From contig CAKZTQ010000058.1 of NCBI GenBank assembly GCA_937921735.1, positions 1-26,752 on the forward strand: 26,752 nt of DNA. Direction: 5' to 3'. Under the pieces are notes generated by a model. The model saw only the letters and a program-made list of their open reading frames with translations, was not told the DNA's origin and did no database searches. The position numbers and the translations under genes were made by a program. This stretch comes from an uncultured archaeon. Lineage in GTDB: Archaea; Hadarchaeota; Hadarchaeia; Hadarchaeales; Hadarchaeaceae. Positions 229 to 15,369 of this stretch are shown here, one piece after another; position 1 is the first letter of the stretch; the number at the start of each line of letters is the position of its first letter.

Positions 229-952
229 GGTACGGGGGCTGGAGTCTAGGCAGGAGGACGCGTTCTGGTGAGACTCCGTGATAAGAACTCCCCGTGGGTT
301 TTTCCCTTACCATGAGAACATCGCGCTGGCCATGCCCTCTTCCACGGATGGCCCGGGGGCGCTGGGGAACGGGATCTGGAGGATTTCTTATTCATTCGTG
401 TGCTACCTCAAAACTTGCACTTATGCGCCCTGGGGATACTCATGCGCCAGGACCACTTGAAAGAGGCCGCCAGTTTCCCGTCTGATGACGGGTGCCATGA
501 CCCAAGCAGCCCTATCCCTACTTTGGACCCTCCTGGCTGTTTTGCCAAGCCCCCACCTCCAGGAATCCTTCAAGGCTTTGCCCTTGCCCAAGATAGCCCC
601 TTGGGGCTGACCTTCCTCCACGGCCACGGCAAGGCTAGACCCCAGCGCAGCAAGACCAGGTCCCCCTCTGCCCTCTCCCGCTTCCTCAACCGCTTTTCCC
701 GCCTGCCACGCCCTGGACCCTGCTTGTGGTGGAGGAGGAGGCGGTTCACGTTAGAGGGCTTTTTCCCGGAGATGAAAGGGGGGAGGGAGCTGGTGGGAGG
801 CCAGGGAGCGGGCAACTCGGGTTCTCTTGCCCAAGCTCGTGGGGAGGGAAGTGGTGCCAAACGATAGAGCTGTGTGGGAAACCGGGGCATTATGGAAGGG
901 TTAACGGGTGCAATATTGCCCCTAGTCAATAGGGTTGATACTGTCTTGCCTG

Positions 953-1330
953 TCAAGCGGCCCCTTGGTGCGGCTGGGTCGCGTAGTACTCCCTGAGCCG
1001 CCCCATCATCCGCCCGAGGAGCTTGTGGGCCACGGCTAAAAGCGCCTGTTTTTTTCTCTTCCCTCGGGAGAGCAAACGGTGGTAGAAGGCCCGCATCTCT
1101 GGGTCATGGCGCACCGCCACCAGGGCCCCCATGTAGAGCTTTCACCGCAAGAGGGGAGGCCCTTTTCTGGAGAGCCGACTCCTCTCCACGCTCTTTCCCG
1201 ACGCTTCCCGCTCGGGGATCAGCCCCGTGTAGGAGGCTGCCGCCTTCGCCCGGCCCCAGAGGTGGGGCGGGAGGAGGGCCAGCACCGCTGCCGCCACCTG
1301 GGGTCCTACGTCGGGCAGGGCCATCAGGAC
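953..1330 (-). pseudogene. IS110-family recombinase (transposase) remnant: C-terminal Tnp domain only, with an in-frame stop
   Basis: Translates VLMALPDVGPQVAAAVLALLP...ASYTGLIPEREASGKSVERSRLSRKGPPLLR*KLYMGALVAVRHDPEMRAFYHRLLSRGKRKKQALLAVAHKLLGRMMGRLREYYATQPHQGAA*. It has the GLxPxxxxSG motif and the A+AHKL tail of IS110 enzymes. Internal TGA at 1142-1144; the N-terminal RuvC-like DEDD domain is absent. Confidence 0.9.
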
Positions 1331-1448
1331 GTGTGGATGCGGTCTTTCACGACCGGGATACTGTGCGGCGGGGAGGCCAGGGCGGGTGGCTACCCATCAA
1401 TCCCGCGGGCGTGGCGGCCCGGCAACCGGGGCGGTAGGGCCTCCCTCA
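1331..1448 (-). ncRNA. Putative IS110 bridge RNA, 3'-truncated
   Basis: Nested stems at 1371-1378/1438-1445, 1390-1394/1433-1437 and 1407-1410/1417-1420 enclose guide-like loops. A second loop carries ACAGTATC (1364-1357), identical to the element's own right end (944-937), next to a GGTC-gtgaaa-GACC hairpin. The layout matches the IS621 bridge RNA as I recall it. Ends are approximate. Confidence 0.7.
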
Positions 1449-1493
1449 GGGGGCAAGATACATGAACCCGGTTCATACTTTGTTTTCTCTTAC

Positions 1494-1522
1494 TTGACAA
1501 AGTTTAACAGCTTTACTAACCT
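1494..1522 (+). promoter_or_regulatory. Sigma70-type promoter for module 1
   Basis: TTGACA (1494-1499), 17-nt spacer, TAACCT (1517-1522), in an AT-rich patch; GGGGAGG ribosome-binding site upstream of ATG 1581. Confidence 0.75.
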
Positions 1523-1580
1523 TGAGCTAAGCTCCTCCGTTACTTGCTAAGCCCTTAGGCCAGGGGAGGTTGCTCTGAAG

Positions 1581-2159
1581 ATGTCGGGAGAAGAGCACTT
1601 ACTTTTAGAAGGCTTGGGCGCAAAGATTCGAAGCCGACGTCGGCAGCTGGGGTTGACGCTCAGGGAGCTGGGTAGGCGAGCGGGTCTTTCTGCAGCCTTT
1701 TTGTCCCTAGTTGAGCGAGGGCACGCCAAACCTGCTTTGTCCTCCCTTATAAGCCTGGCGCAAGCTCTGGAAGTCAGCCCTGAGTTTTTCCTAAGCACAG
1801 GGCTATCTCATGGAAAGGAGCTCGTGAGGAGATCTTCCGAGATCATTTACTTCCACCTTGATGGGCTCCCCGTGCGGTATGCGTTCCTCTCCTGTGAAAT
1901 CCCGGATAGAAAGCTGGATGTCGTACTAGTGGAGATTCCACCGGGCTACACTTCGGAGGTTTGGCAGCACCCTTATTTGGGCGAGGAGTTTATCTACGTC
2001 CTTTCCGGAAAAATCAAGGTTTTGTTAGGAAGTCGCACTTTTTGCCTTGGACCCGGTGATTCAGTTCATTTCCGCTCGGACATTAGGCATCGGTGGGCTA
2101 ATACGGAGTCCGATGTGGCGAGGGTTCTCTGGGTAGGTACTCCTCCATTCTGGAGGTAG
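1581..2159 (+). CDS. XRE-family HTH transcriptional regulator with C-terminal cupin sensor domain (PuuR/SutR-like)
   Basis: N-terminal LGAKIRSRRRQLGLTLRELGRRAGLSAAFLSLVERG HTH; cupin motifs H...GEEFIYVLSG and GDSVHFRSDIRHRWAN. Confidence 0.93.
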   Translation: MSGEEHLLLEGLGAKIRSRRRQLGLTLRELGRRAGLSAAFLSLVERGHAKPALSSLISLAQALEVSPEFFLSTGLSHGKELVRRSSEIIYFHLDGLPVRYAFLSCEIPDRKLDVVLVEIPPGYTSEVWQHPYLGEEFIYVLSGKIKVLLGSRTFCLGPGDSVHFRSDIRHRWANTESDVARVLWVGTPPFWR

Positions 2160-2163
2160 ATAT

Positions 2164-2520
2164 ATGGAGAAACTGGCGTTGGCCTGGCCGGATCCGGAAG
2201 GTGTAAAAGAGCTCGGGACATTTCTCCTGCCTTCCGGGGAGCGTGTGATACTGGGTACAGCAAGGTTTCCTCAAGGCCGCCTCATACCCGAGCGCGGGTT
2301 TTCTCTTCACCAGGGCAGCGAGCTGTCATTGCTTCTTGAGGGTTCCTTGGAGGTGGAGGTGGAGGGGCGAGAGACTGGTGACATCATTCGGGCTGGTGAG
2401 GTGACATTTATCCCGGCTGGTGTGCCGCATAGGGCCAAGGTGCTTCAACCCACGCTATTGGTTTGGGTTTGGATTGAGACAGGGAGGGAAGAGGATGGGC
2501 AGGCGGATATTGTGGATTAA
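2164..2520 (+). CDS. Small cupin-domain protein
   Basis: 118 aa with HQGSELSLLLEGSL and GEVTFIPAGVPHRA cupin motifs; tightly coupled to both neighbours. Confidence 0.85.
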   Translation: MEKLALAWPDPEGVKELGTFLLPSGERVILGTARFPQGRLIPERGFSLHQGSELSLLLEGSLEVEVEGRETGDIIRAGEVTFIPAGVPHRAKVLQPTLLVWVWIETGREEDGQADIVD

Positions 2521-3307
2521 TCCGGTCGGCACGGACGTTTTTGATAGGGAAATGCAAGCGCTTTTCGAAGCGGAAAAGCTTCCCGACACGCAAGTAGAGG
2601 TGCGCTCGCTGCAGCGGGGTCCGCATCATCTCGAGTACCACTACTACGGCGCTTTGGTTCTGCCGGATGTGTTACACATGCTTGTCGAGGCCGAGCGTGA
2701 GGGCTTCGATGCCGCGGTGGTGGGTTGCTTTTACGACCCGGGAGTAAAGGAAGCTCGGGAGGTTGTCCGTTCTCTTCCTGTGATTTTCCCTGCCGAGGCC
2801 TGCCTTTACCTGGCAGCTACCATGGGGGACAAGTTTTCCATACTCGTAGGGAGGCGGAAGTGGATCCCCGCGATGCGGGAGAATGTGGAACGCTATGGGT
2901 TGATCCACAAATTGGCTTCCTTCAAAGAGTTGTGCATGGGAGTTCACGACTTCCAAAAAGATCCTGAAGAAACGCGACGGCGGATGATCCGTTTGGGGCG
3001 AGAAGCCATCGAGCTTGATGGAGCTGAGGTATTGATCCTCGGTTGCACCATTGAGTTTGGCTTTTTCCGAGACTTGCAAGAAGAGTTGGGTGTTCCCGTC
3101 TTGGACGCCACGGTTACCCCACTAAAGGTGGCGGAGTTGCGTGCTGAGCTAAAGCAGAGGTACGGTTGGGGCGCAAGCAAGCGTGGAGGGTACGAGACCC
3201 CGCCGCTGCACGAGATGGAAGCCTGGGGTTTGGGGGGGCAGTATCCCGGATTAGCACGTGCATGGGGAATTTCCGATGTGGGGGTTGGGGAGAAGGCGAG
3301 GAGGTGA
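2495..3307 (+). CDS. Asp/Glu/hydantoin racemase family protein (hydantoin/allantoin racemase-like)
   Basis: Starts MGRRILWINPV; two catalytic-Cys motifs, GCFYDPG and ILGCT. Start moved to ATG 2495, downstream of a purine-rich GGGAGGGAAGAGG stretch. Confidence 0.9.
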   Translation: MGRRILWINPVGTDVFDREMQALFEAEKLPDTQVEVRSLQRGPHHLEYHYYGALVLPDVLHMLVEAEREGFDAAVVGCFYDPGVKEAREVVRSLPVIFPAEACLYLAATMGDKFSILVGRRKWIPAMRENVERYGLIHKLASFKELCMGVHDFQKDPEETRRRMIRLGREAIELDGAEVLILGCTIEFGFFRDLQEELGVPVLDATVTPLKVAELRAELKQRYGWGASKRGGYETPPLHEMEAWGLGGQYPGLARAWGISDVGVGEKARR

Positions 3308-3311
3308 AGCC

Positions 3312-4904
3312 ATGAGGTTGTGGAAGCTTGGGATGGCCTTGGTCTTCATCGGTGTATTATCCCTGGCGTTGGGGCAGGAAAAGATTTTGCGGTTGGATGA
3401 GGTGGCTGTTGGGGAGCTGGATCCCGCCAAGGCCACAGATTATGCGGATTCCATTCTGATGTTCAACGTTTACGATACGTTGGTCTGGCCGGATGCCCGT
3501 GGCAAGCTTCAACCCCACCTGGCCCAGCGCTGGACGGTTTCACAGGACGGGCTCACCTATACCTTCAACCTCAGGCCCGGGGTGCGGTTTCACGACGGAG
3601 CCGAGGTGACGGCTCAGGATGTCGTCTTCTCTCTGAACCGCATGGTGGCCATCAACCAAGGATACGCTTATTTGTTCCGAGGCTGGGTCAAGGAAGCCCG
3701 AGCGATCGATCGGTATACCGTTCGGTTTACCCTTTCTGAACCATATGCGCCGTTCCTGGCAACCCTGGTCCGGCTTCCCATAATCAATAGGAACTTGGTT
3801 TTGAAGAACCTGAGGCCGGGGCCTTTCGGAGAGTTCGGGGATTACGGGCAGGCCTTCCTCTCACGGGCAGACGCGGGTTCCGGAGCCTACCGGATTGCGT
3901 CGCATGACCCACAAGCGTTGACTGTAATGGCGAAGTATCCGGCCTACTTCCTCGGCTTTGCCCAAGGAGCTCCCGACCTCGTGCGGTTGCGCTATTCTCT
4001 GGAGCCTGCCACTGTGCGCACATTAATGGTGCGGCGGGAGCACGAGGTGACAAGCCAGTGGCTTCCTCCCGAGATTTACAGGGCCTTGGCCCAGCAGGGC
4101 CTGGATCTGGTTACCGAAGGAGGCAATTCCATCTTCTTCTTGAAGTTGAACAACAAACGGCCGCCCACGGATGACGTTCATTTCCGGAAAGCGATGGCCT
4201 TAGCCTTTGATTACGACGCCCTTCTCGATATCTTAAGGGTTACCGATAGGGTGCGCATGGGTAAAAAGGCTAGGGGGCCTCTTCCCGAGGGATTCCCTGG
4301 GTTTGATGCCGCCCTGCCCCTACCAAAGCGGGACCTAGCTGCGGCCAAGGCGGAGCTTGCCAAATCCAAGTATGACCCGCGGAGCATGCGGGTAGAGATC
4401 GCCTGGGTGGCGGAGGTGCCCTTGGAGGAAAAGATCGCCCTTCTTTTCCAGCAGAACATGGCTGAGCTCGGCATCCAGGTTGATGTCGTTAAGGTTCCTT
4501 GGGCCTTGATGACTGAGCGGGCGACCAAACCTGAAACCACACCTCATGTGACCAGCGTTTACGTTTCCGCTACTTTCCCAGATCCTGACTCCCTTCTTTA
4601 CAGCATGTACCACTCTAAAGCGGCGGGTACTTGGCTCTCCATGTCTTGGCTTCAGGACAAGCGGGTAGACGAGTTGCTGGATCTGGGGCGTAGAACGGTT
4701 GACGAAGCTCGTAGACGCGAGATTTACGTCCAGCTGCAACGGTACCTTGTGAAAAATCAGGTGGATATCTATGGCTATGAGCAGCTTGCCGTTTTCGCCA
4801 AGCAGCCGTATGTCTCCATTCCCACACTGGAGAGCCCTGAGAAGCAGGTAGCCGGTGTTATGGCCGGAAACTGGCTTTTCAGGCTAATGGAGGTACGTCG
4901 CTAG
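3312..4904 (+). CDS. Dpp/Opp-type ABC transporter substrate-binding protein (family 5)
   Basis: Signal peptide MRLWKLGMALVFIGVLSLALG-Q with no lipobox Cys; family-5 signature LAQRWTVSQDGLTYTFNLRPGVRFHDG; GAGGTG ribosome-binding site before ATG 3312. Confidence 0.93.
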   Translation: MRLWKLGMALVFIGVLSLALGQEKILRLDEVAVGELDPAKATDYADSILMFNVYDTLVWPDARGKLQPHLAQRWTVSQDGLTYTFNLRPGVRFHDGAEVTAQDVVFSLNRMVAINQGYAYLFRGWVKEARAIDRYTVRFTLSEPYAPFLATLVRLPIINRNLVLKNLRPGPFGEFGDYGQAFLSRADAGSGAYRIASHDPQALTVMAKYPAYFLGFAQGAPDLVRLRYSLEPATVRTLMVRREHEVTSQWLPPEIYRALAQQGLDLVTEGGNSIFFLKLNNKRPPTDDVHFRKAMALAFDYDALLDILRVTDRVRMGKKARGPLPEGFPGFDAALPLPKRDLAAAKAELAKSKYDPRSMRVEIAWVAEVPLEEKIALLFQQNMAELGIQVDVVKVPWALMTERATKPETTPHVTSVYVSATFPDPDSLLYSMYHSKAAGTWLSMSWLQDKRVDELLDLGRRTVDEARRREIYVQLQRYLVKNQVDIYGYEQLAVFAKQPYVSIPTLESPEKQVAGVMAGNWLFRLMEVRR

Positions 4905-4917
4905 GGGAGGAAGAGGG

Positions 4918-5940
4918 ATGGGGCGGGCACTTTTCCGGAGGTTGGTTTGGTCCCTAGGGGTTCTTTTTGGTGTTTCGCTCCTGATCTTTGTCCTCGCGCG
5001 CGTCATTCCAGGGGATCCGGCTAGGATTGCTTTGGGACCGATGGCCACCGAGGAGCAGGTGGAAGCACTGCGGCGTGCGCTCTACCTTGACCGCCCCCTC
5101 CCTCTACAATACGTGGAATTTCTGCGCCGGGTTGTCCGAGGGGATCTTGGATTTTCGACCTATACCAAACGCCCTGTAGTGGAAGATCTACGTGAATATC
5201 TTCCGGCTACTCTAGAGCTTGTCTTTGTGAGTGGCTTTATCATGGTTGCTCTGGGCCTTCCATTAGGAATTGTAGCCGCCCATTTTAGAGACCGTTGGCC
5301 GGACGCGTTGGCCCGCGTGCTGGCTCTTTTGGGGGTGGTGACACCGAGCTTTGTTTGGGCCATATTTCTCGTTTTAATTTTCAGTTACGCCTTGGGTTGG
5401 CTGCCGGTGATGGGTCGCCTTTCGGAGGGGCTTTCCCCTCCTCCTCGGGTTACGGGTTTTTTGACAATAGATGCCGTGCTAGCACGTGACTGGGTGGTTT
5501 TCGTAGACGCTTTGCGGCATCTTGCCCTTCCTGCTTTGGCCTTATCGCTCTCGGGCTTAGGGCAAGCGGCACGTTTGGCTCGGACCAATCTTCTTGAAAC
5601 CTTTGCCAAGCCCTATATCGAGCTGGCGCGGGCTTACGGGCTATCTCCGTTCGCTATAGCTCTTAAGTATGCCCTTCGCCCCGCTATGGCCCCGACCCTC
5701 ACCATAATGGGCCTTGACTTTGCGGCCATGCTTGGATCGGCCTTCTTGGTGGAGGCGGTTTTCAACTGGCCGGGCCTTGCCCGGTATATGGTTCAAGCAA
5801 CGCTATACAAAGATCTAAATGCCATTGTAGGCACGGCACTGGTTGTGGCCGCCTTCTTCTTGGCCGTCAATCTACTGGTCGACCTAGTAGTTGTTTGGCT
5901 TAACCCAAGGTTGCGAATTCAGGAAAGAGAGGGGATTTAG
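4918..5940 (+). CDS. Dpp/Opp ABC permease (DppB-like)
   Basis: PGDPA, GDLGFS and PATLEL motifs; EAA loop YIELARAYGL; FNWPGL. Confidence 0.93.
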   Translation: MGRALFRRLVWSLGVLFGVSLLIFVLARVIPGDPARIALGPMATEEQVEALRRALYLDRPLPLQYVEFLRRVVRGDLGFSTYTKRPVVEDLREYLPATLELVFVSGFIMVALGLPLGIVAAHFRDRWPDALARVLALLGVVTPSFVWAIFLVLIFSYALGWLPVMGRLSEGLSPPPRVTGFLTIDAVLARDWVVFVDALRHLALPALALSLSGLGQAARLARTNLLETFAKPYIELARAYGLSPFAIALKYALRPAMAPTLTIMGLDFAAMLGSAFLVEAVFNWPGLARYMVQATLYKDLNAIVGTALVVAAFFLAVNLLVDLVVVWLNPRLRIQEREGI

Positions 5941-5944
5941 GAGG

Positions 5945-6790
5945 ATGCGAAGGGAATCGCTGCGGCGCTTTTGGTATCACTTTGGCCGGAATCCCTTGTC
6001 CCTTTTGGGACTAAGCATAGTGACCTTGGTGGTTGTTGGGGCGCTGGGAGCTCCGTGGATCGCTCCTTATCCGGAGCATGCGGGCCGATTTGTGAATTTT
6101 GCGGAAGCAGGCCAGCCACCTAGCCTCCACCACTTGCTGGGCACTGATACTTTTGGCAGGGACCTCTTTAGTCGTATTCTCTTTGGTTATCGTATTTCCT
6201 TGGCGCTGGGGGTTGTAGTTCTCGGTATAGCTGTGCCGTTAGGAGTAACCCTTGGGCTTTGGGCGGGCTATATCGGCGGGGGGATCGCAACTTGGATAAT
6301 GCGCCTCTCGGATGTGTTCGTGGCAATTCCTCCTCTGGTGCTGGCTATGGCGGTATTGGGTGTGGCCGAGCCCAGCCTGACCAATGCGATGATGGCGCTT
6401 ACCCTGATGTGGTGGCCGTGGTACACAAGGATGATCTACAACCAGGTTCGTTCCTTGCGTTTAGAGGGCTATGTGGTTGCTGCCCAAATCATCGGGGCGT
6501 CGGCCACCCACATTATGTTTCGTGAGATCCTGCCCAATACCCTTCCGAACATCTTGACCAAGGCTGCCTTGGACATGGGATTTGTAATCCTGATTGGAGC
6601 TAGCCTCTCCTTCCTAGGGTTGGGGGTCCAACCCCCTACCCCCGATCTGGGAACCATGGTGGCCGAGGGTGCTCGCTATCTGCCGGATCTGTGGTGGTTG
6701 GCGGTCTTCCCCGGATTGGCGATCCTCTTTGTGGTACTAGGTTTTAACCTCCTGGCAGATGGCCTTCGCGATGCCTTGGGGGAGGGGTGA
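5945..6790 (+). CDS. Dpp/Opp ABC permease (DppC-like)
   Basis: HLLGTDTFGRDLFSRI, EAA loop YVVAAQIIGAS, LSFLGLG and FNLLADGLRD motifs. Confidence 0.93.
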   Translation: MRRESLRRFWYHFGRNPLSLLGLSIVTLVVVGALGAPWIAPYPEHAGRFVNFAEAGQPPSLHHLLGTDTFGRDLFSRILFGYRISLALGVVVLGIAVPLGVTLGLWAGYIGGGIATWIMRLSDVFVAIPPLVLAMAVLGVAEPSLTNAMMALTLMWWPWYTRMIYNQVRSLRLEGYVVAAQIIGASATHIMFREILPNTLPNILTKAALDMGFVILIGASLSFLGLGVQPPTPDLGTMVAEGARYLPDLWWLAVFPGLAILFVVLGFNLLADGLRDALGEG

Positions 6791-7761
6791 TCGCCGTGTC
6801 TTTGCTCGAGGTGAAACAACTGAATTTGAGCCTCAGGACCCATACGGGGTTGGCTCACATTCTCAAAGACGTAAGCCTCAGGGTAGAGGCCGGAGAGCGT
6901 GTAGCCCTGGTCGGTGAAACCGGTTGTGGCAAATCGCTTACCCTGAAGGCCATTCTTGGACTTCTGGAGGGTAAAGGGTTGGTAGTTTCCGGAAAAGTTC
7001 TATTTGAAGGCGAGGAAATCTTGGGCACACCGCGAATTTTGCGGCTTCGCGGAGTGCAGATAGGCTTCATTCCGCAGGATCCCGCAGCCTCGTTAAACCC
7101 CACGTTTTCTATTGCGGACCAGCTGCTCGCGGTGGTCCGACGAGTCCGAAGGAACCTCCCCAAGGAGAAAGCGTGGGCGTTAATCAAGGAGGCTCTTGTA
7201 GAAGTAGCTGTGCCTGACCCGGATCGTGTCTTGGCTTCCTATCCCTTTCAGCTTTCCGGGGGCCTTTGCCAGCGGGTCCTTATAGCCACGGCCCTGGTAA
7301 ACCGCCCCAAGCTCGTATTAGCCGACGAACCAGGTACTGCTCTAGATGTTACGGTGCAGGCACAGACATTACGCGCCATGCGGCATCTGACAGAAAAAAG
7401 CGGATCTTCTGTAATCCTGGTTACACACAACCTGGGTGTGGTTCGGGAGTTTGCCGACAGGGTTTACGTGATGTATGCCGGTACAATAGTAGAGCACGGT
7501 CCTGTCAAAAGCGTTTTTCAGACACCTCGACACCCCTATACCCGAGCTTTGCTCGACTCGGTTCCCCGGCTTACAGGAGGTGGCCTGCCCCAAGGACTAG
7601 ACGGCCACATCCCCGACTACACGTCTCCTCCCAAGGGGTGTCGCTTCCGTCCTCGTTGTGCCTTTGCCCGTCCGGAATGTGCGGAGGAGCAGCCTTTGCG
7701 GCAGGTGGCAGAAGGGCACGAGGTGGCGTGTGTCCTTTATGCGGAGGTGCCCCGTGGCTGA
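6787..7761 (+). CDS. Dpp/Opp ABC ATP-binding protein (DppD-like)
   Basis: Walker A GETGCGKS, LSGG signature, ADEP Walker B, HPYT, and Cys-rich C-terminus GCRFRPRC. Confidence 0.93.
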   Translation: MIAVSLLEVKQLNLSLRTHTGLAHILKDVSLRVEAGERVALVGETGCGKSLTLKAILGLLEGKGLVVSGKVLFEGEEILGTPRILRLRGVQIGFIPQDPAASLNPTFSIADQLLAVVRRVRRNLPKEKAWALIKEALVEVAVPDPDRVLASYPFQLSGGLCQRVLIATALVNRPKLVLADEPGTALDVTVQAQTLRAMRHLTEKSGSSVILVTHNLGVVREFADRVYVMYAGTIVEHGPVKSVFQTPRHPYTRALLDSVPRLTGGGLPQGLDGHIPDYTSPPKGCRFRPRCAFARPECAEEQPLRQVAEGHEVACVLYAEVPRG

Positions 7762-8722
7762 CATCCTTTTAGAGGTTCGGGATCTCACCAAGGAGTTTGC
7801 TGTGGGAAGAAAGCGCGTCCGGGCGCTGAATGGAGTTTCCCTTGGCTTGGAGGAAGGGGAGATCCTAGCTGTTGTAGGGGAGAGCGGTTCAGGGAAGACA
7901 ACTCTAGCCAATTTGGTTTTAGGTATTGAGATGCCGACCTACGGGGATATCCTCTATCGCGGCACACCCTTAAAAACTCCTCGACCGTTGCATATGCGGC
8001 GCCGCCTTCAGTACGTCCAGCAAAATCCGTGGACTACGCTTAATCCTCGACGTACCGTCTTTCAGAGTGTGGCGCTCCCCTTAGCGGTTCACAAGTTGAC
8101 CCCTCCAAGGTTGTGGAGGGAGCGGGTGGCCGAGCTTTTACACCTTGTGGGCCTCGGACCTGAGTTCCTCGACCGCTACCCTCATGCCCTTTCCGGCGGC
8201 CAACGGCAGCGGGTGGCGATTGCACGTGCTTTGGCGGCCCAGCCTGAAATGGTAATATTGGACGAGCCTACAAGCGCTTTGGACGTGAGCGTTCAGGCGA
8301 GAGTGTTGGGTCTGTTACTGGAGATTCAGGCACGTTTTTCCTTAAGCTATCTTTTCATTAGCCATGATCTGGCTGTAGTACGTAATTTCGCGCGTAGAAT
8401 ATTGGTTCTTTACCGTGGTCAAGTCATGGAAACAGGGCCTACGGAGGTGGTGTTCCGGAATCCTGTGCATCCGTATACCCGCCTTCTTTTGGCTTCGGTG
8501 CCAGTAGTCTCTGAAGAGGAGGCTGCTCTTCGCCCATCCTGGCCCTGGGATGCCCAAGACCGGTTGGGACCTGGGGAAGGGTGTCCCTTCTCTTCCCGTT
8601 GTCCCTGGGCGCAAGAGCTCTGCTGGCGCGAACGGCCTTCCCTTGTGCCAATACAGAAGTCTCACTTGGTGGCATGCCACTTTGCCGAACTGTTTGTCGA
8701 GGAGGTTTCCCACCATGGATAG
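7754..8722 (+). CDS. Dpp/Opp ABC ATP-binding protein (DppF-like)
   Basis: GTG start at 7754 after GGAGG; [33 protein letters not shown]. Confidence 0.93.
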   Translation: MADILLEVRDLTKEFAVGRKRVRALNGVSLGLEEGEILAVVGESGSGKTTLANLVLGIEMPTYGDILYRGTPLKTPRPLHMRRRLQYVQQNPWTTLNPRRTVFQSVALPLAVHKLTPPRLWRERVAELLHLVGLGPEFLDRYPHALSGGQRQRVAIARALAAQPEMVILDEPTSALDVSVQARVLGLLLEIQARFSLSYLFISHDLAVVRNFARRILVLYRGQVMETGPTEVVFRNPVHPYTRLLLASVPVVSEEEAALRPSWPWDAQDRLGPGEGCPFSSRCPWAQELCWRERPSLVPIQKSHLVACHFAELFVEEVSHHG

Positions 8723-9875
8723 GCTGAAAGAGGTGCAACAGCTTTTGGAGAAAGAAGGGCTCGACGGGTGGCTTCTCTACGATTTTCGAGGGCAGAATCC
8801 GCTTGCTCTCAGTGTTCTTGGGATCGTCCATACCCTACTTACGCGTCGCTGGTTTGTCTGGGTGCCTACCGTTGGTAAGCCCCAGGCCTTGGTCCACGTT
8901 ATCGAAAAAGACAATCTGCCTTGGACTTATCCTAAGCGGGTTTATGCGAGCCGAGAGTCCTTGGTAGAGGAGCTGTCTGGGTTGTTAGGGGGGGCTCGGC
9001 GTGTAGCTATGGAATACTCGCCCTTAGGTGATAACCCCTACCTTTCCCGGGTTGATGCCGGTACTGTCGATCTCCTTCGCTCCCTGGGAGTGGAGGTTGT
9101 GAGTTCGGGGAATCTCCTTCAGCTTTTCGCTGCGTGGTCTTCTGAACAGATGGCGGCGCATAGAGAAGCCGCTCGGCAGCTGGGGCAAGTCAAGGACTTG
9201 GTTTTTGCCTATATTGCTGAGGTTCTTGCGAAAGGTAAAAAGGTACGGGAGTTTGAAATTCAAGAATATATGCAGGCCCTTTTTAGGGAACATGGATTGG
9301 AAACGGAGCATGGGCCTACTGTGGCTTTCGGTCCCAGCTCTTCTTTGCCTCACTACCGCCCCCGTCCCAAAGCTGACCGCGTGCTTTCCCAAGGAGAGGT
9401 GATCTTGCTGGATATGTGGGCCAAGCTGCCGGGTCCTAATCCCTATGCGGACATCACCTGGGTGGCCTTCTGGGGGAGGCCATCCGAGGAGGTGGTTCGG
9501 GCTTTTACCGCCGTTTTGGAGGCGCGGGACCGGTGTGTGGATTTTCTTGCTGAGGGTTTGGCTGAGGGGCGCGAGATCCGTGGATGGGAGGTGGATGCGG
9601 TTGCGAGGAGGGTCTTGGAGGGGTATGGGTTTGGTTCCTATATACAGCATAGAACCGGACATAGCCTTGGGGTTGCACAGGTTCATGGGGATGCGGTTCA
9701 CTTCGACGGTTACGAGACACGTGACGATCGGCGGGTGATTCCCAACCTCGGGTATACCGTGGAGCCTGGGGTTTACTTGGGGGACTTCGGTGTAAGAACG
9801 GAAATAGATGTGCTCGTGCATCCCGCTTCTGTCGAGATCACCTCACCGGTGCAAAGACAAATAGATGCTCTTTAA
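8715..9875 (+). CDS. M24 family metallopeptidase (Xaa-Pro peptidase/prolidase-like)
   Basis: All five pita-bread metal ligands are present: LLDMW, YADITW, HRTGHSLG, TVEPG and RTEID. ATG 8715 follows GGAGG. Confidence 0.9.
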   Translation: MDRLKEVQQLLEKEGLDGWLLYDFRGQNPLALSVLGIVHTLLTRRWFVWVPTVGKPQALVHVIEKDNLPWTYPKRVYASRESLVEELSGLLGGARRVAMEYSPLGDNPYLSRVDAGTVDLLRSLGVEVVSSGNLLQLFAAWSSEQMAAHREAARQLGQVKDLVFAYIAEVLAKGKKVREFEIQEYMQALFREHGLETEHGPTVAFGPSSSLPHYRPRPKADRVLSQGEVILLDMWAKLPGPNPYADITWVAFWGRPSEEVVRAFTAVLEARDRCVDFLAEGLAEGREIRGWEVDAVARRVLEGYGFGSYIQHRTGHSLGVAQVHGDAVHFDGYETRDDRRVIPNLGYTVEPGVYLGDFGVRTEIDVLVHPASVEITSPVQRQIDAL

Positions 9876-9888
9876 AGGAGGTCAAGCA

Positions 9889-11961
9889 ATGGCTGAGCGG
9901 AAGGTCCAAGTTGCGGTTGACGTAGGTGGAACATTTACCGATCTGGTGGCTCTGTACGCGGATCCCCACACGGGGACGCAGCGAGTGGTGACGGCCAAAG
10001 TCGATACCACGCCCCCAGAGTTCGAAAAAGGGGTGCTTCAGGTGCTTCAAAAAGGGGGGGTTCCCGTGGGGGAAACCGCCCTATTGATACATGGAACCAC
10101 GGTGGTCATCAACGCCATCACCGAGCGTCGCGGGGTGAAGGTGGGATTAATCACCACCGAGGGGTTTAGAGATGTCCTGGAGATTGCTCGGGGCGATCGT
10201 CCTGACTTCTTTAACCTGCTTTACCGTAAGCCTCCACCCTTTGTGCCCCGGTACCTTCGGCGTGAGGTGCCCGGGCGTATGACTTACCGGGGCGAGGAGC
10301 GGAGTCCTCTAGATACGAATGTCCTTCCGGGTATCCTAGAGGACTTCAAAAAAGAGGGAGTGGAGGCGGTGGCGGTATGCCTCCTGCATAGTTATGCCAA
10401 TCCCAGCCATGAGGAAAGGGTTGTTCAGGAAATTCGGCGCCTTTGGCCGGATGTGCCTGTAATTGCTTCGCACGAGATTACACGGGAGTGGAGGGAATAC
10501 GAACGCACTAGCACTACGGTTCTCTGTGCCTATGTTCTCCCCGTAGCCCAGCGGTACTTAGATCGACTGGGTCAGGGATTGGCGGACCAAGGATTTGGCG
10601 GGCAAATCTACATTATGCATTCTAACGGTGGAGTGGAGACCCTCGAGCGGACCAAGCGGGTCCCTATTACCATGATCGAATCCGGACCTGCCGGAGGCTT
10701 TTTGGGGGCTGCGGAGCTTGGTCGGCTTCTTGGAGAACCCAACATCTTGGCCTTAGATATAGGTGGGACGACCGCCAAGTGCTCTCTTATCGTGGATGGC
10801 CAGGTTCGCATTAAGACAGATTACTGGATTGAAAGAGATCGAAAATCCTCTGGATACCCCATCATGGTTCCCGTGGTAGATGTGGTGGAAATTGGGAACG
10901 GAGGTGGAAGTATAGCGTGGGTGGACGATTTCGGCCGCCTGCACGTGGGTCCCCAGTCGGCGGGGGCCCAGCCTGGTCCGGCGGCCTACGGCCGGGGAGG
11001 TCAGGACGCTACCACTACCGACGCCAACTTGGCCTTAGGGCGCATTAATCCAAACTATTTCTGTGGCGGCGAAATAGAAGCAGATATGGACGCAGTAAAC
11101 ATGGCCTTGGATCGTCTTTCCGCTCGTTTAGGGATGAAGCGAGAGGAGGTGGCAAGAGGCATTATTCGCTTGGCTAATAACAATATGGTTAACGCACTTA
11201 AGCTGGTTTCGGTCAATCGGGGCTACGATCCGCGAGATTTCACCCTTATGGCCTTCGGGGGAGGTGGGGGAATGCACGCTGTGGCCCTTGCGCGGGAGTT
11301 GGGGATGCGCAAGGTGATCATTCCTTGGGCGGCGGATGTGTTTTCTGCCTTTGGAATGCTTATGACCGACCTTCGACGCGACTACCTCATTACCCAGCTG
11401 ATTTCCCTGGACACTCCCCAGGCGGCTTCTCGACTGAGTTGGCTGGCGGAGAGCCTGACCCAGACCGCTTTGGAAGAACTGAAGGCGGAGGGGGTTCCCC
11501 TGGAGCGGGCTCGGCTGTTGTATTTCGGACGCATCCGGTACGAGAACCAGGAACATACCGTTGAAATCCCTCTGCCGCCCCCACCTTATCGAGAAGACAG
11601 CTTGTCTCAGATTGCCCAAACCTTCCACGAGGCCTACGAGCGGGAGTATACCTACAGGCTTAATGCGCCTTTGGAGTTCGTAACCTTGCACCTTGTGCTC
11701 GGTGTGGCTATAGACCGCCTTCAGGTGCCGCGGATGCCCCGTACAGGGCGATCGTTAGAGGAGGCGATGAAGGGTGTCCGGACAGTGGACTTTGATTTAG
11801 AGGGTGTACAGCCAGCTAAGATCTACGACGGGCACTCCTTAGAACCGGGTATGGCCTTTGAAGGGCCGGCCATTGTGGAGACCAAAGGAACAACAGTAGT
11901 GGTGCATCCTGGATGCCGGGCGGAAGTGGACGATTTCGGCAACCTGCATATTTACCTGTAG
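9889..11961 (+). CDS. hyuA: Hydantoinase A / 5-oxoprolinase-family ATP-binding subunit
   Basis: DVGGTFTD, HGTTVVINA, REYER, SGPAGG, DIGGTT, VGPQSAGAQPGPAAY, GYDPRDF and SAFG motifs; about 690 aa; AAGGAGG ribosome-binding site. Confidence 0.93.
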   Translation: MAERKVQVAVDVGGTFTDLVALYADPHTGTQRVVTAKVDTTPPEFEKGVLQVLQKGGVPVGETALLIHGTTVVINAITERRGVKVGLITTEGFRDVLEIARGDRPDFFNLLYRKPPPFVPRYLRREVPGRMTYRGEERSPLDTNVLPGILEDFKKEGVEAVAVCLLHSYANPSHEERVVQEIRRLWPDVPVIASHEITREWREYERTSTTVLCAYVLPVAQRYLDRLGQGLADQGFGGQIYIMHSNGGVETLERTKRVPITMIESGPAGGFLGAAELGRLLGEPNILALDIGGTTAKCSLIVDGQVRIKTDYWIERDRKSSGYPIMVPVVDVVEIGNGGGSIAWVDDFGRLHVGPQSAGAQPGPAAYGRGGQDATTTDANLALGRINPNYFCGGEIEADMDAVNMALDRLSARLGMKREEVARGIIRLANNNMVNALKLVSVNRGYDPRDFTLMAFGGGGGMHAVALARELGMRKVIIPWAADVFSAFGMLMTDLRRDYLITQLISLDTPQAASRLSWLAESLTQTALEELKAEGVPLERARLLYFGRIRYENQEHTVEIPLPPPPYREDSLSQIAQTFHEAYEREYTYRLNAPLEFVTLHLVLGVAIDRLQVPRMPRTGRSLEEAMKGVRTVDFDLEGVQPAKIYDGHSLEPGMAFEGPAIVETKGTTVVVHPGCRAEVDDFGNLHIYL

Positions 11962-11973
11962 GGGGTGGGTAGC

Positions 11974-13629
11974 ATGAGCAAGCTAGACTTCATCACCCTT
12001 GAAGTGATCCAGAATTCCTTGCAGGCCATAAGTGATGAGATGTTTGCTGCTATGCGAAAGACGGCCATGAGTCCCATCATCTACGAGGTTCTGGACATGG
12101 GAACGGCGGTTACGGACGGCCATGGGAACTTGGCGACCTCCGGGGCGGGTATACCAGCCTTTGTAGCCGTGTTGGACAAAGCCGTCCAAAGGATCATCGA
12201 GCTTAACCAGGGCGATATCCGTCCCGGAGATGTGTTTGCTACTAACGACCCCTTCTTCGGCGGGGTTACCCACCTGAACGATGTGGTTCTGGCCATGCCT
12301 GTTTTTGTGGAAGGGGAATTGGTGGCTTGGACGGCTAACATTGCCCACTGGAACGATGTGGGCGGTATGGTGCCGGGTTCCATGTCCAACGAGGCTCGGG
12401 AAATCTACCAGGAAGGTCTTCGGTTACCGGCTGTTAAAATCGTTGACCAAGGCCAACCTGTGCGGGCAGTGATGGAGATTTTGCGGGCCAACACCCGTCT
12501 TCCCGATTTCCTCTGGGGCGATCTCTGGGCAGGTGTGGCAGCGGTTCGCCTTGGAGCTAGGCGCATTCAGGATCTGGCAGCCAAATACGGTAAAGATGTT
12601 TTCGTCCAGGCTCTAGATCATTTCATGGCTTATGGGGAGGAAGTTTCTCGTCGGGCTCTAAGGGAACTACCTAAGGGAAAATTTTACCTTGAAGAAGAGC
12701 AGGATGATGGCCGGATCTTCAAGGTAACCGTGGAAATACGGGATGATCGCTTTGTGATCGATCTGCGGGATAATCCTGATCAGCACGAAGGCCCCTACAA
12801 CCTGTGTCGGGACGCAACCCTGATCGCGTGTCAGCTCATCTTTAAAAATGTCACCGATCCCTTTAGTACCGTGGCTAACGCGGGGACCTTCCGTCCTCTA
12901 GAAGTGCTAACACGTCCCGGGTCTGTGTTTGACGCTCAGCCGCCCGCAGCCTTTGGCTTTTACTACGAAGTGGAAATTCGGGTATATGATCTTATTTGGC
13001 GCTGCTTGGCCCCTTACCTCGAGGATCGGCTTCCTGCCGGGCACTTTGCGTCGATTTGTGGAACCGTTATTGGAGGGCCCCATCCGGATACCGGACGCCA
13101 CTTCACCATCGTGGAGCCAGAGCTCGGTGGATGGGGAGCCTCCCGGTACTCTGACGGTAACAGCGCTCTATTTAGCGGCTTCCATGGGGAAACTTTCAAC
13201 TGTCCTGCTGAGGTGGCCGAAGCACGGTATGGGCTCTATGTGGAGCAGCTTCGCCTTAACGACGAACCGGGCGGCGAAGGCTATTTCAGGGGGGGTAAGG
13301 GCATTGTGCTTGATTACCGAGTTCGCTCTGATGGGTGCTTCCTAACCATCGGTTATACCCGGAGCAAACAGCGTCCTTGGGCTCTGGCGGGGGGCCGAGA
13401 AGGATCCCCGAATTACGTGGAAATATTCCGGAAAGACGGGAGAAGGGAGGTGTATTCCCAAGTTACCGCCCTGCCGCTGAATCGCGGGGATCTGATTCGC
13501 ATTCACACAGGCAATGGTGGTGGATACGGTGACCCTCGTAGCCGGCCAAGAGAAAAGGTGTTAGAGGATCTGAAGAACGGGTACATTACCTCTGAAATAG
13601 CCCGTGAGGTGTACGGCCTGGAGGTTTGA
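11974..13629 (+). CDS. hyuB: Hydantoinase B / oxoprolinase-family metal-binding subunit (copy 1)
   Basis: NDPFFGGVTHLND, AHWNDVGG, EIYQEG, GGWGA and GGGYGDP motifs, plus C-terminal tail RPREKVLEDLKNGYITSEIAREVYG. Confidence 0.93.
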   Translation: MSKLDFITLEVIQNSLQAISDEMFAAMRKTAMSPIIYEVLDMGTAVTDGHGNLATSGAGIPAFVAVLDKAVQRIIELNQGDIRPGDVFATNDPFFGGVTHLNDVVLAMPVFVEGELVAWTANIAHWNDVGGMVPGSMSNEAREIYQEGLRLPAVKIVDQGQPVRAVMEILRANTRLPDFLWGDLWAGVAAVRLGARRIQDLAAKYGKDVFVQALDHFMAYGEEVSRRALRELPKGKFYLEEEQDDGRIFKVTVEIRDDRFVIDLRDNPDQHEGPYNLCRDATLIACQLIFKNVTDPFSTVANAGTFRPLEVLTRPGSVFDAQPPAAFGFYYEVEIRVYDLIWRCLAPYLEDRLPAGHFASICGTVIGGPHPDTGRHFTIVEPELGGWGASRYSDGNSALFSGFHGETFNCPAEVAEARYGLYVEQLRLNDEPGGEGYFRGGKGIVLDYRVRSDGCFLTIGYTRSKQRPWALAGGREGSPNYVEIFRKDGRREVYSQVTALPLNRGDLIRIHTGNGGGYGDPRSRPREKVLEDLKNGYITSEIAREVYGLEV

Positions 13630-13667
13630 CGTAAGGAACCAAGGGTTCTTTTACCGAGGGGTTGTGG

Positions 13668-15242
13668 ATGAAGGACCCCATTACCGTAGAGATCATTGCT
13701 GAAGGCCTGGAGGCGGCGGCCCAAGAGATGCTCCTGGTCCTTCAACGAACGGCCATGTCTCCGATTGTGTATGAGGTTCTCGATGCCGGTGCAGGCATCA
13801 CGGATGCCGCTGGACGGCTGGTGGCCTCCGGGGCGGGCATACCTACTTTTGTGTCCATCATAGACCGCGCTGTGCGTGCGGCCCATGCACATTTCGGAGA
13901 GGACATTCGTCCTGGAGATATTTTTCTGACTAACGAACCTTCCCAAGGAGGGGTAACGCACCTTAACGATGTTGCTGCCGTCATGCCTGTCTATGCCATA
14001 GGTAGGCGGGTGGCGTGGGTGGGGGTTATTGCCCATTGGAGCGATGTGGGGGGTGGAGTAGCTGGGTCAATGATGGCCGGAGCCGGAGAGCTTTTCCAGG
14101 AAGGCATACGTATACCCCCGATCAAGGTGGCCGAAGGTGGCAAAATACTCACCCACGTTTTCCGGTTGCTTAAAACCAATTCCCGTTTACCGGACTTCCT
14201 AGAAGGAGACCTTTGGGCCCAGATTGCTGCTCTTAAGGCGGGGGAACGTCGGGTTCGTGAGCTTGCCCGGCGCTATGGTTACGAGGTCTTTGTAGATACG
14301 TTGAATGAGATCCTCGAAGCGGGGTACAAGCGGGCCCTTCAGGGCCTGGCCAATTTACCTCAGGGCGACTTTGCCCTGGAGGAAGAACAGGATGACGGCT
14401 CTTGCTTTCGCGTTAGGGTGCAAATTCGTCCCGATCAATTTGTGGTGGATCTGAGAGATAATCCTGATCAAATGCCTGGACCGTATAACCTTTATCGCGA
14501 TGCGACAGAAATAGCTGCTCAAATGATCTTTAAAGCACTTGTTGATCCTAGAAGAGAAGGAGCCAACGCGGGGTTCTTCCGCCCCTTAAAGGTTATAACC
14601 CGTCCTGGATCGCTTTTTGATGCGCTACCACCGGCTGCGTGCGGTTTTTATTACGAACTTCGTATGCGGGTGTACGACCTGATTTGGCGTTGTCTCGCCA
14701 CGCATCACCCTGCGCTCCTGCCTGCAGGTCACTTTGCTACTATAGGAGGTACGGTATTAAGTGGCCGTAATCCCGACAACCAAAAAGCCTATGTCTTGGT
14801 GGAGCCCCAGCCTGGAGGCTGGGGGGCTTTCTGGGAGGGAGATGGGGTTTCCACGCTTTTCAGTGCCTTCCATGGAGAAACGTACATTTGCCCCGCTGAA
14901 GTTGCCGAGGCTCGCTACGGTTTAGAAGTGGAACGGATGGCCTTGAACGAGGAAAAAGGGGGGGAGGGTCGCTATCGAGGAGGCAAAGGTTTTGTTCGGG
15001 TCTACCGTATGCGCGCGGAAGCGCTTCTTACCGTAGGTTTTACCCGCACCCGCATTCCACCTTGGGGGCTTGCAGGAGGGGGTCCGGGGACCCCAAACCG
15101 GGTAGAGATAATCTACCCAGACGGATCGATCAGACGGCTGGGTATCGCTAGTGGAGTACGCCTTCCACCGGGGGCACGGGTCCGAATCGTAACCGGCGTT
15201 GGGGGAGGTTATGGCGCACGTGGCGATTCAGAAGGCCGGTGA
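13668..15242 (+). CDS. hyuB: Hydantoinase B / oxoprolinase-family subunit (copy 2, lacks C-terminal tail)
   Basis: NEPSQGGVTHLND, AHWSDVGG, ELFQEG, GGWGA and GGGYG motifs; collinear paralogue of copy 1. Confidence 0.9.
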   Translation: MKDPITVEIIAEGLEAAAQEMLLVLQRTAMSPIVYEVLDAGAGITDAAGRLVASGAGIPTFVSIIDRAVRAAHAHFGEDIRPGDIFLTNEPSQGGVTHLNDVAAVMPVYAIGRRVAWVGVIAHWSDVGGGVAGSMMAGAGELFQEGIRIPPIKVAEGGKILTHVFRLLKTNSRLPDFLEGDLWAQIAALKAGERRVRELARRYGYEVFVDTLNEILEAGYKRALQGLANLPQGDFALEEEQDDGSCFRVRVQIRPDQFVVDLRDNPDQMPGPYNLYRDATEIAAQMIFKALVDPRREGANAGFFRPLKVITRPGSLFDALPPAACGFYYELRMRVYDLIWRCLATHHPALLPAGHFATIGGTVLSGRNPDNQKAYVLVEPQPGGWGAFWEGDGVSTLFSAFHGETYICPAEVAEARYGLEVERMALNEEKGGEGRYRGGKGFVRVYRMRAEALLTVGFTRTRIPPWGLAGGGPGTPNRVEIIYPDGSIRRLGIASGVRLPPGARVRIVTGVGGGYGARGDSEGR

Positions 15243-15259
15243 GAAAAGCTAAGAGTTCC

Positions 15260-15338
15260 CCCCATCACGAGACCGCGGTGCGCCTTCTGGAGGCCGGGCG
15301 ATATTGCCTGCTGGAGCGAAGGGGGTGTGGAATGTGGG
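15260..15338 (+). mobile_element. IS1634-family right-end remnant: last codons of the transposase plus terminal inverted repeat
   Basis: Reads PHHETAVRLLEAGRYCLLERRGCGMW, an IS1634-like C-terminus. GGGGTGTGGAATGTGGG (15322-15338) is a 15/17 reverse-complement match to 26613-26629. Confidence 0.75.
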
Positions 15339-15369
15339 TTGAAGGATTCGGATTCAGGTTTGAAGGAAT

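Follow-up and report, generated by a model that had tools for sequence, protein, structure and literature searches.

The stretch of DNA analysed here (26,752 nucleotides of contig CAKZTQ010000058.1, hereafter the window) contains at positions 936–1464, on the minus strand on which all coordinates in the window are read below, a 529-bp sequence that is, as judged from alignment, an internally deleted copy of IS1000A/B, an insertion sequence of the IS110 family from Thermus thermophilus. It is not a new element but the long-known IS1000, on record since 1990 (Ashby and Bergquist, 1990, cited in PMC6352166). In our assessment it is very probable that the window copy is an inert relic and that intact IS1000 is a bridge-RNA element having the CRISPR repeats of Thermus as its usual target.

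Blastn search of the window element against plasmids returned 32 matching records, all 32 from Thermus. Plasmid pTHTHE1601 of T. thermophilus SG0.5JP17-16 contains the 529 bp at 100% identity, and in the other plasmid records the two halves of the query span 1162 bp with about 91% identity, in genes annotated as “IS110-like element IS1000A/B family transposase”. Aligned to the HB8 copy, the window element matches positions 1–133 and 768–1162 of the 1162-bp sequence, positions 134–767 of IS1000A being missing, and the first and last bases of the window copy are the same as those of the HB8 copy; full-length copies thus have the boundaries that the initial annotation of this DNA had drawn. The left junction reads CCGGGTT (1470–1465), CA (1464–1463) and TGTATC (1462–1457), and the right one ACAGTAT (944–938), CA (937–936) and ACCCT (935–931); TCA is common to both junctions, so that the core is ambiguous by one base from the window copy alone. 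The octamer ACAGTATC occurs twice in the window, both times on the same strand, with the second copy at 1364–1357, while shuffled windows contained it 0.38 times on average and at least twice in 6 of 100 shuffles. Just after this second copy lies the hairpin CGGTC-GTGAAA-GACCG (1355–1340), and the motifs CCCGGTT (1430–1424) and GGGATTG (1404–1398) are placed on either side of the hairpin CGGGC-CGCCAC-GCCCG (1421–1406). These motifs, together with the donor ACAGTAT-CA-TGTAT, had been reported in the initial annotation and are all present; its match counts of 6/7 for the left flank and 5/7 for the right one hold as well, although its left register is one base off that of the family, in which the match is 5/8. 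The proposal that the element is a bridge-RNA member of the IS110 family coming from a thermophile agrees with the exclusively Thermus origin of the 32 plasmid matches and with the two-loop RNA predicted for 12 relatives, as described next.

Intact siblings do exist, for instance three 1162-bp copies in HB8, the species representative. The intact IS1000A protein has both Pfam domains, the N-terminal, RuvC-like DEDD_Tnp_IS110 (PF01548, 2.2e-30) and the C-terminal Transposase_20 (PF02371, 3.2e-24), and the nearest solved structures to this recombinase are ISCro4 (E 8.5e-35) and IS621 (E 8.9e-32), with near full-length alignment. Ends of IS1000-type copies were collected from HB8 pTT27, pTHTHE1601, 32 Thermus species genomes and one further genome, and 12 distinct full-length left ends were aligned (mean column identity 91%). 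The left end of these full-length relatives is predicted to form a two-loop bridge RNA. That of HB8 folds at −78.5 kcal/mol (z −4.09), none of 200 shuffles being as good, and the predicted RNA consists of a 10-bp closing stem around two arms, each composed of an outer stem, an internal loop and an inner hairpin. Over the 12 sequences 94.9% of the cells in the six-helix model are paired, and four pairs show changes in both partners (matched by 0 of 500 shuffles); sliding the partners by 1–3 columns leaves 35–52% paired. Search of Rfam gave no family at gathering score in the window and only chance-level matches on the intact HB8 left end. A search for related loci yielded nine, eight of them in Thermus, and among 301 genomes of the class the proteins of the IS1000 clade are 63–100% identical while the next ones reach at most 39%, because of which there are no intermediates for deeper covariation. 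By analogy with described bridge-RNA systems, the working parts of intact IS1000 would be the DEDD/Tnp_20 recombinase, a left-end RNA of about 155–165 nt and a promoter formed at the junction of the ends.

In the left-end alignment hypervariability is confined to two blocks, namely the target guides, situated on both sides of the first loop. Their relation to the flanks was assessed in 19 of 22 junction rows, with omission of L062, which has an extra base, and of two L028 rows belonging to a partial tandem copy. The left target guide, 8 nt on the 5′ side of the first loop, has the sense of the left flank, with 98 identities of 152 over the 19 junctions, a score that no reassignment of guides to sites attained in 20,000 shuffles. 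The right target guide comprises 7 nt on the 3′ side and is antisense to CA and the next five bases of the flank; in the 15 rows with a right flank 98 of 105 positions are complementary, a count attained in 19 of 20,000 shuffles, and each of its three classes has a flank to match (GGGATTG: CA-ATCCC; GGGGCTG: CA-GCCCC; GACTTTG: CA-AAGC). The 5′ side of the second loop is the left donor guide, ACAGTATC or ACCGTATC, in accord with the element’s own right end in 14 of 14 cases, and the 3′ side bears an invariant CCACATG complementary to CA-TGT of the left end; equally invariant is the AT after the right target guide, which complements donor positions 6–7. Across insertions and lineages the guides change together with the target flanks and with the element’s own ends, so that the loop sequences follow insertion sites as the initial annotation had anticipated, and the segments which it had picked are the left target guide, right target guide and left donor guide of the family. 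In some IS1000 lineages, as read from their junctions, neither target guide has stayed the same, and the copies are inserted in different sequences.

By the same reading, the usual target of the family is the end of Thermus CRISPR repeats, at GTCG-CA-ATCCC. As many as 21 of 29 distinct right-end junctions lie in such repeats (GTCG-CA-ATCCCC), where the flank begins with ATCC and reaches the repeat terminus after 30 nt; of 19 distinct 30-nt flanks, 11 are found again in the same locus, spaced 68–81 nt apart, and one more is a single such repeat. The three full HB8 copies are located within arrays of 16, 23 and 20 repeats continuing on both sides. At least seven repeat sequences are used, with a common end that in the sense of CRISPR RNA (crRNA) reads ...GGAT-TG-CGAC or ...GGAT-TG-AAAC. 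Since the 5′ handle of T. thermophilus crRNA is given as AUUGCGAC in the relevant part of PMC8157118, comparison with this shared end places the entry of IS1000 after handle position 4 and before position 5, in every case antisense to the array. Of the left target, only four bases are repeat sequence, the remainder being spacer. At left-guide positions 1–4 the used junctions (n = 10, duplicates L033 and L035 dropped) agree at 2.3 of 4 positions versus 1.06 of 4 in 87 unused repeats of the same loci (one-sided Mann–Whitney p 3.5e-5), and the left guide appears to choose among repeat–spacer junctions. In pTP143 of T. parvatiensis (L035:1742–1909) a partial and a full IS1000 occupy successive repeats of one array, with one repeat remainder and one spacer between them.

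Alternatively, it might be chiefly the protein, or a hairpin of the target DNA, that decides where insertion takes place, the guides acting as a secondary filter, in the manner of the second layer of sequence plus structure proposed for ISPpu10 in the consulted part of a preprint (10.64898/2026.03.19.712850). The core is indeed immediately followed by a short palindrome (CCCC-TTAC-GGGG in the repeats, CCCTA-TTGAC-TAGGG at the window’s site), and the target of an IS1000 lineage in another Thermus genome (G068, described below) is palindromic too. Within arrays, however, the hairpin is the same in every repeat, yet it is at junctions with a spacer end fitting the left guide that insertion has occurred; where a lineage has altered guides, its flanks are altered to match, in some cases with no obvious hairpin (L044, L027 and L059); and the window flank beyond the guide-read bases is not significantly repeat-like (best 6.0 against a shuffle mean of 4.05, with 311 of 2000 shuffles as good). 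We thus hold this alternative to be unlikely and retain guide-directed choice of CRISPR repeats.

The kinship between the end of IS1000 and CRISPR repeats has been described previously with the opposite direction in mind. In the section of the paper dealing with the element (Blesa et al., 2019; PMC6352166), positions 1165–1196 of IS1000 (32 bp) are identified as CRISPR repeats, 52 copies of this segment are counted in HB8 and 38 in HB27, and the identity is interpreted as recruitment. The identity itself is confirmed here, and it arises because the family inserts in CRISPR repeats. An origin of the repeats, or of isolated 32-bp segments, by recruitment from the IS1000 end is in contrast extremely improbable: the 30 nt after the right CA are absent at non-CRISPR sites (the window, L044, L050, L057, L059 and L027), at least seven different repeat sequences flank different IS1000 copies, and the interrupted repeat is split into GTCG-CA and CA-ATCCCC... 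with the regular array spacing continuing across the element. Lengths add up as well, since IS1000 measures 1162 bp between the CA copies against the published 1196 bp (PMC6352166), and the latter value seems to include the interrupted 36-bp repeat (1196 = 1160 + 36, whole repeat plus element). The literature retrieved on IS110 elements and CRISPR repeats or on thermophilic bridge recombinases contained no report of homing to CRISPR repeats or of IS1000 as a bridge system; supplementary orthologue tables, e.g. those of PMC11208160, were outside this search and may include IS1000.

Intact CRISPR repeats read GTCGCAATCCCC, or GTCGCAATCCCCTTACGGGGCTCAATCCCTTGCAAC in HB8, whereas the interrupted repeat reads GTCG-CA-[IS]-CA-ATCCCC, and CA is present in 18 of the 21 left ends listed, the window included. 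Comparison with empty sites is also provided by the genome G068, where an IS1000 lineage with both target guides changed resides in a dispersed repeat resembling repetitive extragenic palindromic (REP) sequences (L103–L132; ...CTTGGGCACCCCATGTTG-CGAAACCAAAGTGCGGGCACTTAG...), the 18-nt left part of which occurs in 44 copies against 0 for the reversed control. Thirty of these REP-like copies were read, 4 being occupied and 26 empty; most empty copies have CG at the core position, and the few with CA show it once, e.g. L122 (...CTCTGTTG-CA-AAGCC...). Because CA is single in intact CRISPR repeats and in the empty REP-like paralogues and stands at both ends of the inserted element, the core is, as far as such sequence comparison goes, CA, in agreement with the initial assignment. 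The IS1000-type copies of G068 occupy only those repeat variants that have CA at the core position.

If the mechanism follows that of IS621, the right target guide, being antisense, would pair with the core and five right-flank bases, the donor loop would read the joined ends ACAGTAT-CA-TGTAT as the target loop reads the target, and recombination at the CA core would insert the circular element leaving CA at both ends. With the ends joined, TTGACA (right end) would precede TATCTT (left end) at a distance of 17 nt, and circularisation would combine these two motifs, read from sequence, into a putative promoter for the RNA and the recombinase. RNA runs were available as Logan contigs, from which strand and level are not readable. 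In three size-fractionated libraries from two studies, short contigs over left-end positions 67–158 reach a word depth of 2.0e4–3.6e5, against some tens as a rule and a few hundred at the highest for contigs covering most of the recombinase gene, although contig depth cannot rank gene parts. An adapter-bearing contig end points to a 3′ end of the sense strand at left-end position 167; coverage of the target-loop part of the left end is low and uninformative.

Deep coverage was met at the other end too. At the HB8 right end (L043:1493–1584, antisense), very deep short small-RNA contigs extend over the last 84 bp beside the interrupted repeat, with one adapter-bearing contig end 60 nt into the element on the crRNA-sense strand, and in another RNA run the IS1000 right end is joined within one contig to a repeat from a different family. 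Array transcripts may be read, and perhaps processed, into the right end of IS1000, as far as contigs with mostly unreadable strand allow to say. A broader and rather doubtful idea is that IS1000 is an RNA-guided transposon living in the CRISPR memory of its host, with the RNA pathways of transposon and CRISPR being coupled. Insertion would split the array while leaving the repeat hairpin and the bases as far as the handle’s first four nucleotides intact on the side first reached by array transcription, so that the interrupted repeat could still be processed, giving hybrid crRNA-like RNAs antisense into the element’s right end. If true, arrays would be weakened by IS1000 and might in return produce guides directed at it. 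A possible parallel might be found in Sulfolobus, where according to the pertinent part of PMC10883916 the CRISPR-repeat-binding protein Cbp1 binds the 3′ flank of ISC1229, also of the IS110 family; repeat-like target remnants might be present there as well.

The window copy retains the following parts, all on the minus strand:

1465–1472: left target flank (ACCGGGTT), host DNA just outside the element; 5/8 match to the family’s 8-nt left target guide.
1463–1464: left copy of the CA core; a single CA in intact CRISPR repeats and REP-like paralogous empty sites.
1457–1462: right-donor half TGTATC, the first bases of the left end; start common to 18 of the 21 left ends listed.
1460–1455: TATCTT, putative −10 half of the promoter forming on circularisation.
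1440–1449: 5′ strand of the bridge-RNA closing stem (CTGAGGGAGG), its 3′ partner being deleted in the window copy; helix 1, with 97.5% of cells paired in 12 relatives.
1390–1437: complete target-binding loop, according to left-end alignment, helix model and guide matching.
1437–1431: 5′ strand of the target-loop outer stem.
1430–1421: left target guide CCCGGTTG plus CC.
1421–1406: inner hairpin of the target loop.
1404–1396: right target guide GGGATTG plus handshake AT.
1395–1390: 3′ strand of the target-loop outer stem.
1332–1390: donor-binding loop, 5′ half only, according to left-end alignment and guide matching.
1390–1380: 5′ strand of the donor-loop outer stem.
1364–1356: left donor guide ACAGTATCC, agreeing with the right end in all 14 elements that have both.
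1355–1340: inner hairpin of the donor loop.
1339–1332: remnant of the right donor guide, CATCCACA.
1330–1332: deletion junction, from alignment to IS1000A.
953–1330: remnant of the C-terminal Transposase_20 part of the transposase (PF02371, E 5.9e-11).
1144–1142: in-frame TGA in the transposase remnant, CGA in IS1000A, from translation and alignment.
951–956: TTGACA, putative −35 half of the junction promoter.
938–944: left-donor half ACAGTAT, the last bases of the right end.
936–937: right copy of the CA core.
931–935: right target flank ACCCT, host DNA; together with the core 5/7 plus one G–T wobble versus the right target guide.

The window copy is a dead and immobile fossil of IS1000. The deletion begins within the right donor guide, the rest of which is gone, and neither the closing stem nor the stems of the donor loop keep a 3′ strand; also lost are the start codon, the ribosome-binding site and the DEDD domain. 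The bridge RNA that the initial annotation called readable is so in its target loop and the 5′ half of the donor loop, but it is truncated in the right donor guide and its fold is no longer superior to that of shuffles (z −0.06, with 89 of 200 as good). Transposase_20 is the only protein signal in the element, in a frame with a nonsense codon, and a promoter scan of the integrated window copy gave no sigma-70-like sites. Its insertion site is near-cognate and non-CRISPR. A decayed CRISPR repeat was considered as its target and rejected, no other copy being found in the genome or in 5 Thermus records and the bases beyond the guide-read part not being significantly repeat-like, as given above; a loose CRISPR-repeat pattern gave one match in the window, at chance level, and the idea that the flank is the end of another insertion sequence received no support from inverted repeats around the neighbouring IS4 gene.

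All copies of the 529-bp form that were found, namely those in the window, in pTHTHE1601 and in metagenome contigs, have the same flanks. The two copies of pTHTHE1601 are both inside a common 819-bp segment (73 + 529 + 217 bp), and since the 73-bp and 217-bp flanks are common to both, they reflect segmental duplication rather than transposition. A 29-nt left-flank pattern retrieved four metagenome contigs with the same site, occupied in all of them: three contain the whole 529 bp with 0–1 mismatches and the fourth ends within the element. An empty allele was not found, every detected copy of the flank being occupied, and the 35-nt right flank was found only in pTHTHE1601 and, cut by another insertion, in pTthSNM3-3c. 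The latter plasmid (L069:1501–1560) repeats the sequence to the right of the window’s insertion site, interrupted 11 bp earlier by a different insertion, the end of which (TGTGTAAGGGTCCGTGTTTAATAGGGGGGCACACC) also abuts a second IS1000 right end in L035 (T. parvatiensis).

The genome of the window holds one copy only, and no full-length IS1000 was found there or in pTHTHE1601; the other IS110-family gene of the genome, on contig C5, is 26% identical and for this reason is rejected as a sibling, and the element is absent from 60 of 60 relatives of this genome. Internally deleted copies keeping both ends are in turn frequent in various Thermus genomes (L060:1400–1632, L056, L059 and L050), with 233, 728, 936 and 947 bp between the ends besides the 529 bp of the present form, the 233-bp copy having little beyond the two ends. 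It might be supposed from such derivatives, from the intactness of both donor halves and both core copies in the window element, and from the ability of the IS621 bridge RNA to work when supplied in trans, as described in part of PMC11208160, that the 529-bp form is a working non-autonomous derivative, akin to miniature inverted-repeat transposable elements (MITEs) and movable in trans by the recombinase and bridge RNA of full-length IS1000. We consider this very improbable in view of the identical flanks of the two pTHTHE1601 copies in their shared segment and of the three complete metagenome copies, of the lack of a detected full-length IS1000 in the window’s genome or pTHTHE1601, and of the low identity of the sole other IS110-family gene; the same deleted form was not found at several unrelated sites, which places it outside the mobile MITE-like class. 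For an inert relic, the probable course of events would be insertion at a near-cognate non-CRISPR site followed by loss of 634 bp and by the nonsense codon, after which the copy would have been duplicated once, passively, within the 819-bp segment.

Several observations weigh against the interpretation of IS1000 given above. Relatives at 91% identity are so close that 31 of 41 stem pairs never vary, because of which the structure rests on few compensatory changes and covariation support is thin. Junction rows share guides or repeat families and are not independent, so that the shuffle counts overstate significance. To fit the guide, left junctions L044 and L059 must be shifted by one base; L062 carries an additional base, and the window’s own target corresponds to the guides in part (5/8 on the left, 5/7 plus one wobble on the right). 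Both left guides end in CC against the CA core in 12 of 12 sequences, which leaves the second core base unpaired by the left guides. The circle-junction joint was not seen in four RNA runs, represented by contigs only, and the recombination mechanism is carried over from IS621 by analogy.

As to the surroundings, window positions 1465–15542 are 99.9% identical to plasmid pTHTHE1601 of T. thermophilus SG0.5JP17-16. The assembly amounts to 1.06 Mb and its 60 kin of about 1 Mb are without the element. In G+C content (58.3%) and tetranucleotide composition the contig does not stand out from the rest of the bin (rank 45 of 60). It may be plasmid DNA of Thermus placed in the wrong bin, or DNA transferred recently. 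Beside the element, at 1581–2520 and separate from the finding reported here, lie a helix-turn-helix (HTH) cupin regulator (Cupin_2 3.6e-17, HTH_3 1e-11) and a second small open reading frame (2164–2520), which head a gene cluster common with pTHTHE1601 and containing hydantoinase/oxoprolinase and Xaa-Pro peptidase family proteins and parts of an ATP-binding cassette transporter.

The window feature in itself has little weight, and its value lies in the relatives to which it leads. IS1000 would represent a natural bridge-RNA system from an organism growing at about 70 °C, and with intact copies at hand in the standard laboratory strain HB8 the idea of a heat-stable programmable recombinase is directly testable. 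The CA core, if borne out in assays, would widen the site range of bridge recombinases beyond the near-invariant T at the second core position. Targeting of CRISPR repeats would account for the puzzle of the 32 bp shared by IS1000 and the repeats and for the frequent interruption of Thermus arrays, and it raises the question of whether inserted copies put parts of arrays out of action or introduce aberrant RNAs into the crRNA pathway.

Among known systems, IS1000A/B of HB8 is the same element as that of the window, with the same boundaries and CA and about 91% alignment of both ends and the retained interior, from which the window copy differs by loss of positions 134–767 and by the nonsense codon. 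IS621 of Escherichia coli stands next. Its donor, which the initial annotation had given correctly, is printed as ACAGTATCTTGTAT within a donor DNA oligonucleotide in the methods of PMC13396178, and the IS1000 donor is the same at 13 of 14 positions, the sole difference being the second core base. The two share a two-domain recombinase (PDB 8wt6, E 8.9e-32), an RNA encoded in the left end upstream of the gene, with left guides in top-strand sense and right guides antisense (as set out in the corresponding passages of PMC11208160), and a 2-nt core read by guides with two handshake bases after the right target guide (likewise in PMC11208158). In the part of PMC11208158 concerned with IS621 and its orthologues the second core base is an almost invariant T contacted by the protein; IS1000, with CA in place of CT, falls outside the CT-core group. 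It differs further in the 10-bp closing stem enclosing its RNA, in its natural target, a CRISPR repeat instead of the REP sequence of IS621, and in a host growing at high temperature. The best match among solved structures is ISCro4 (PDB 9t56, E 8.5e-35, residues 2–305 versus 9–314), a comparison at the protein level only. In Thermus filamentous phages, a transposase of the IS110 family is thought to serve integration, as mentioned in the text of PMC11437467 available to us. Counterparts in target preference are ISPpu9 and ISPpu10 of Pseudomonas putida, members of the IS110 family which, in the sources as far as consulted, insert into REP or one conserved intergenic repeat. Their DNA sequences are unrelated to IS1000, most copies of which use CRISPR repeats instead, but all three home to a multi-copy palindromic repeat of the host and have miniature gene-less derivatives, and the IS1000 lineage of G068 likewise resides in a REP-like repeat.

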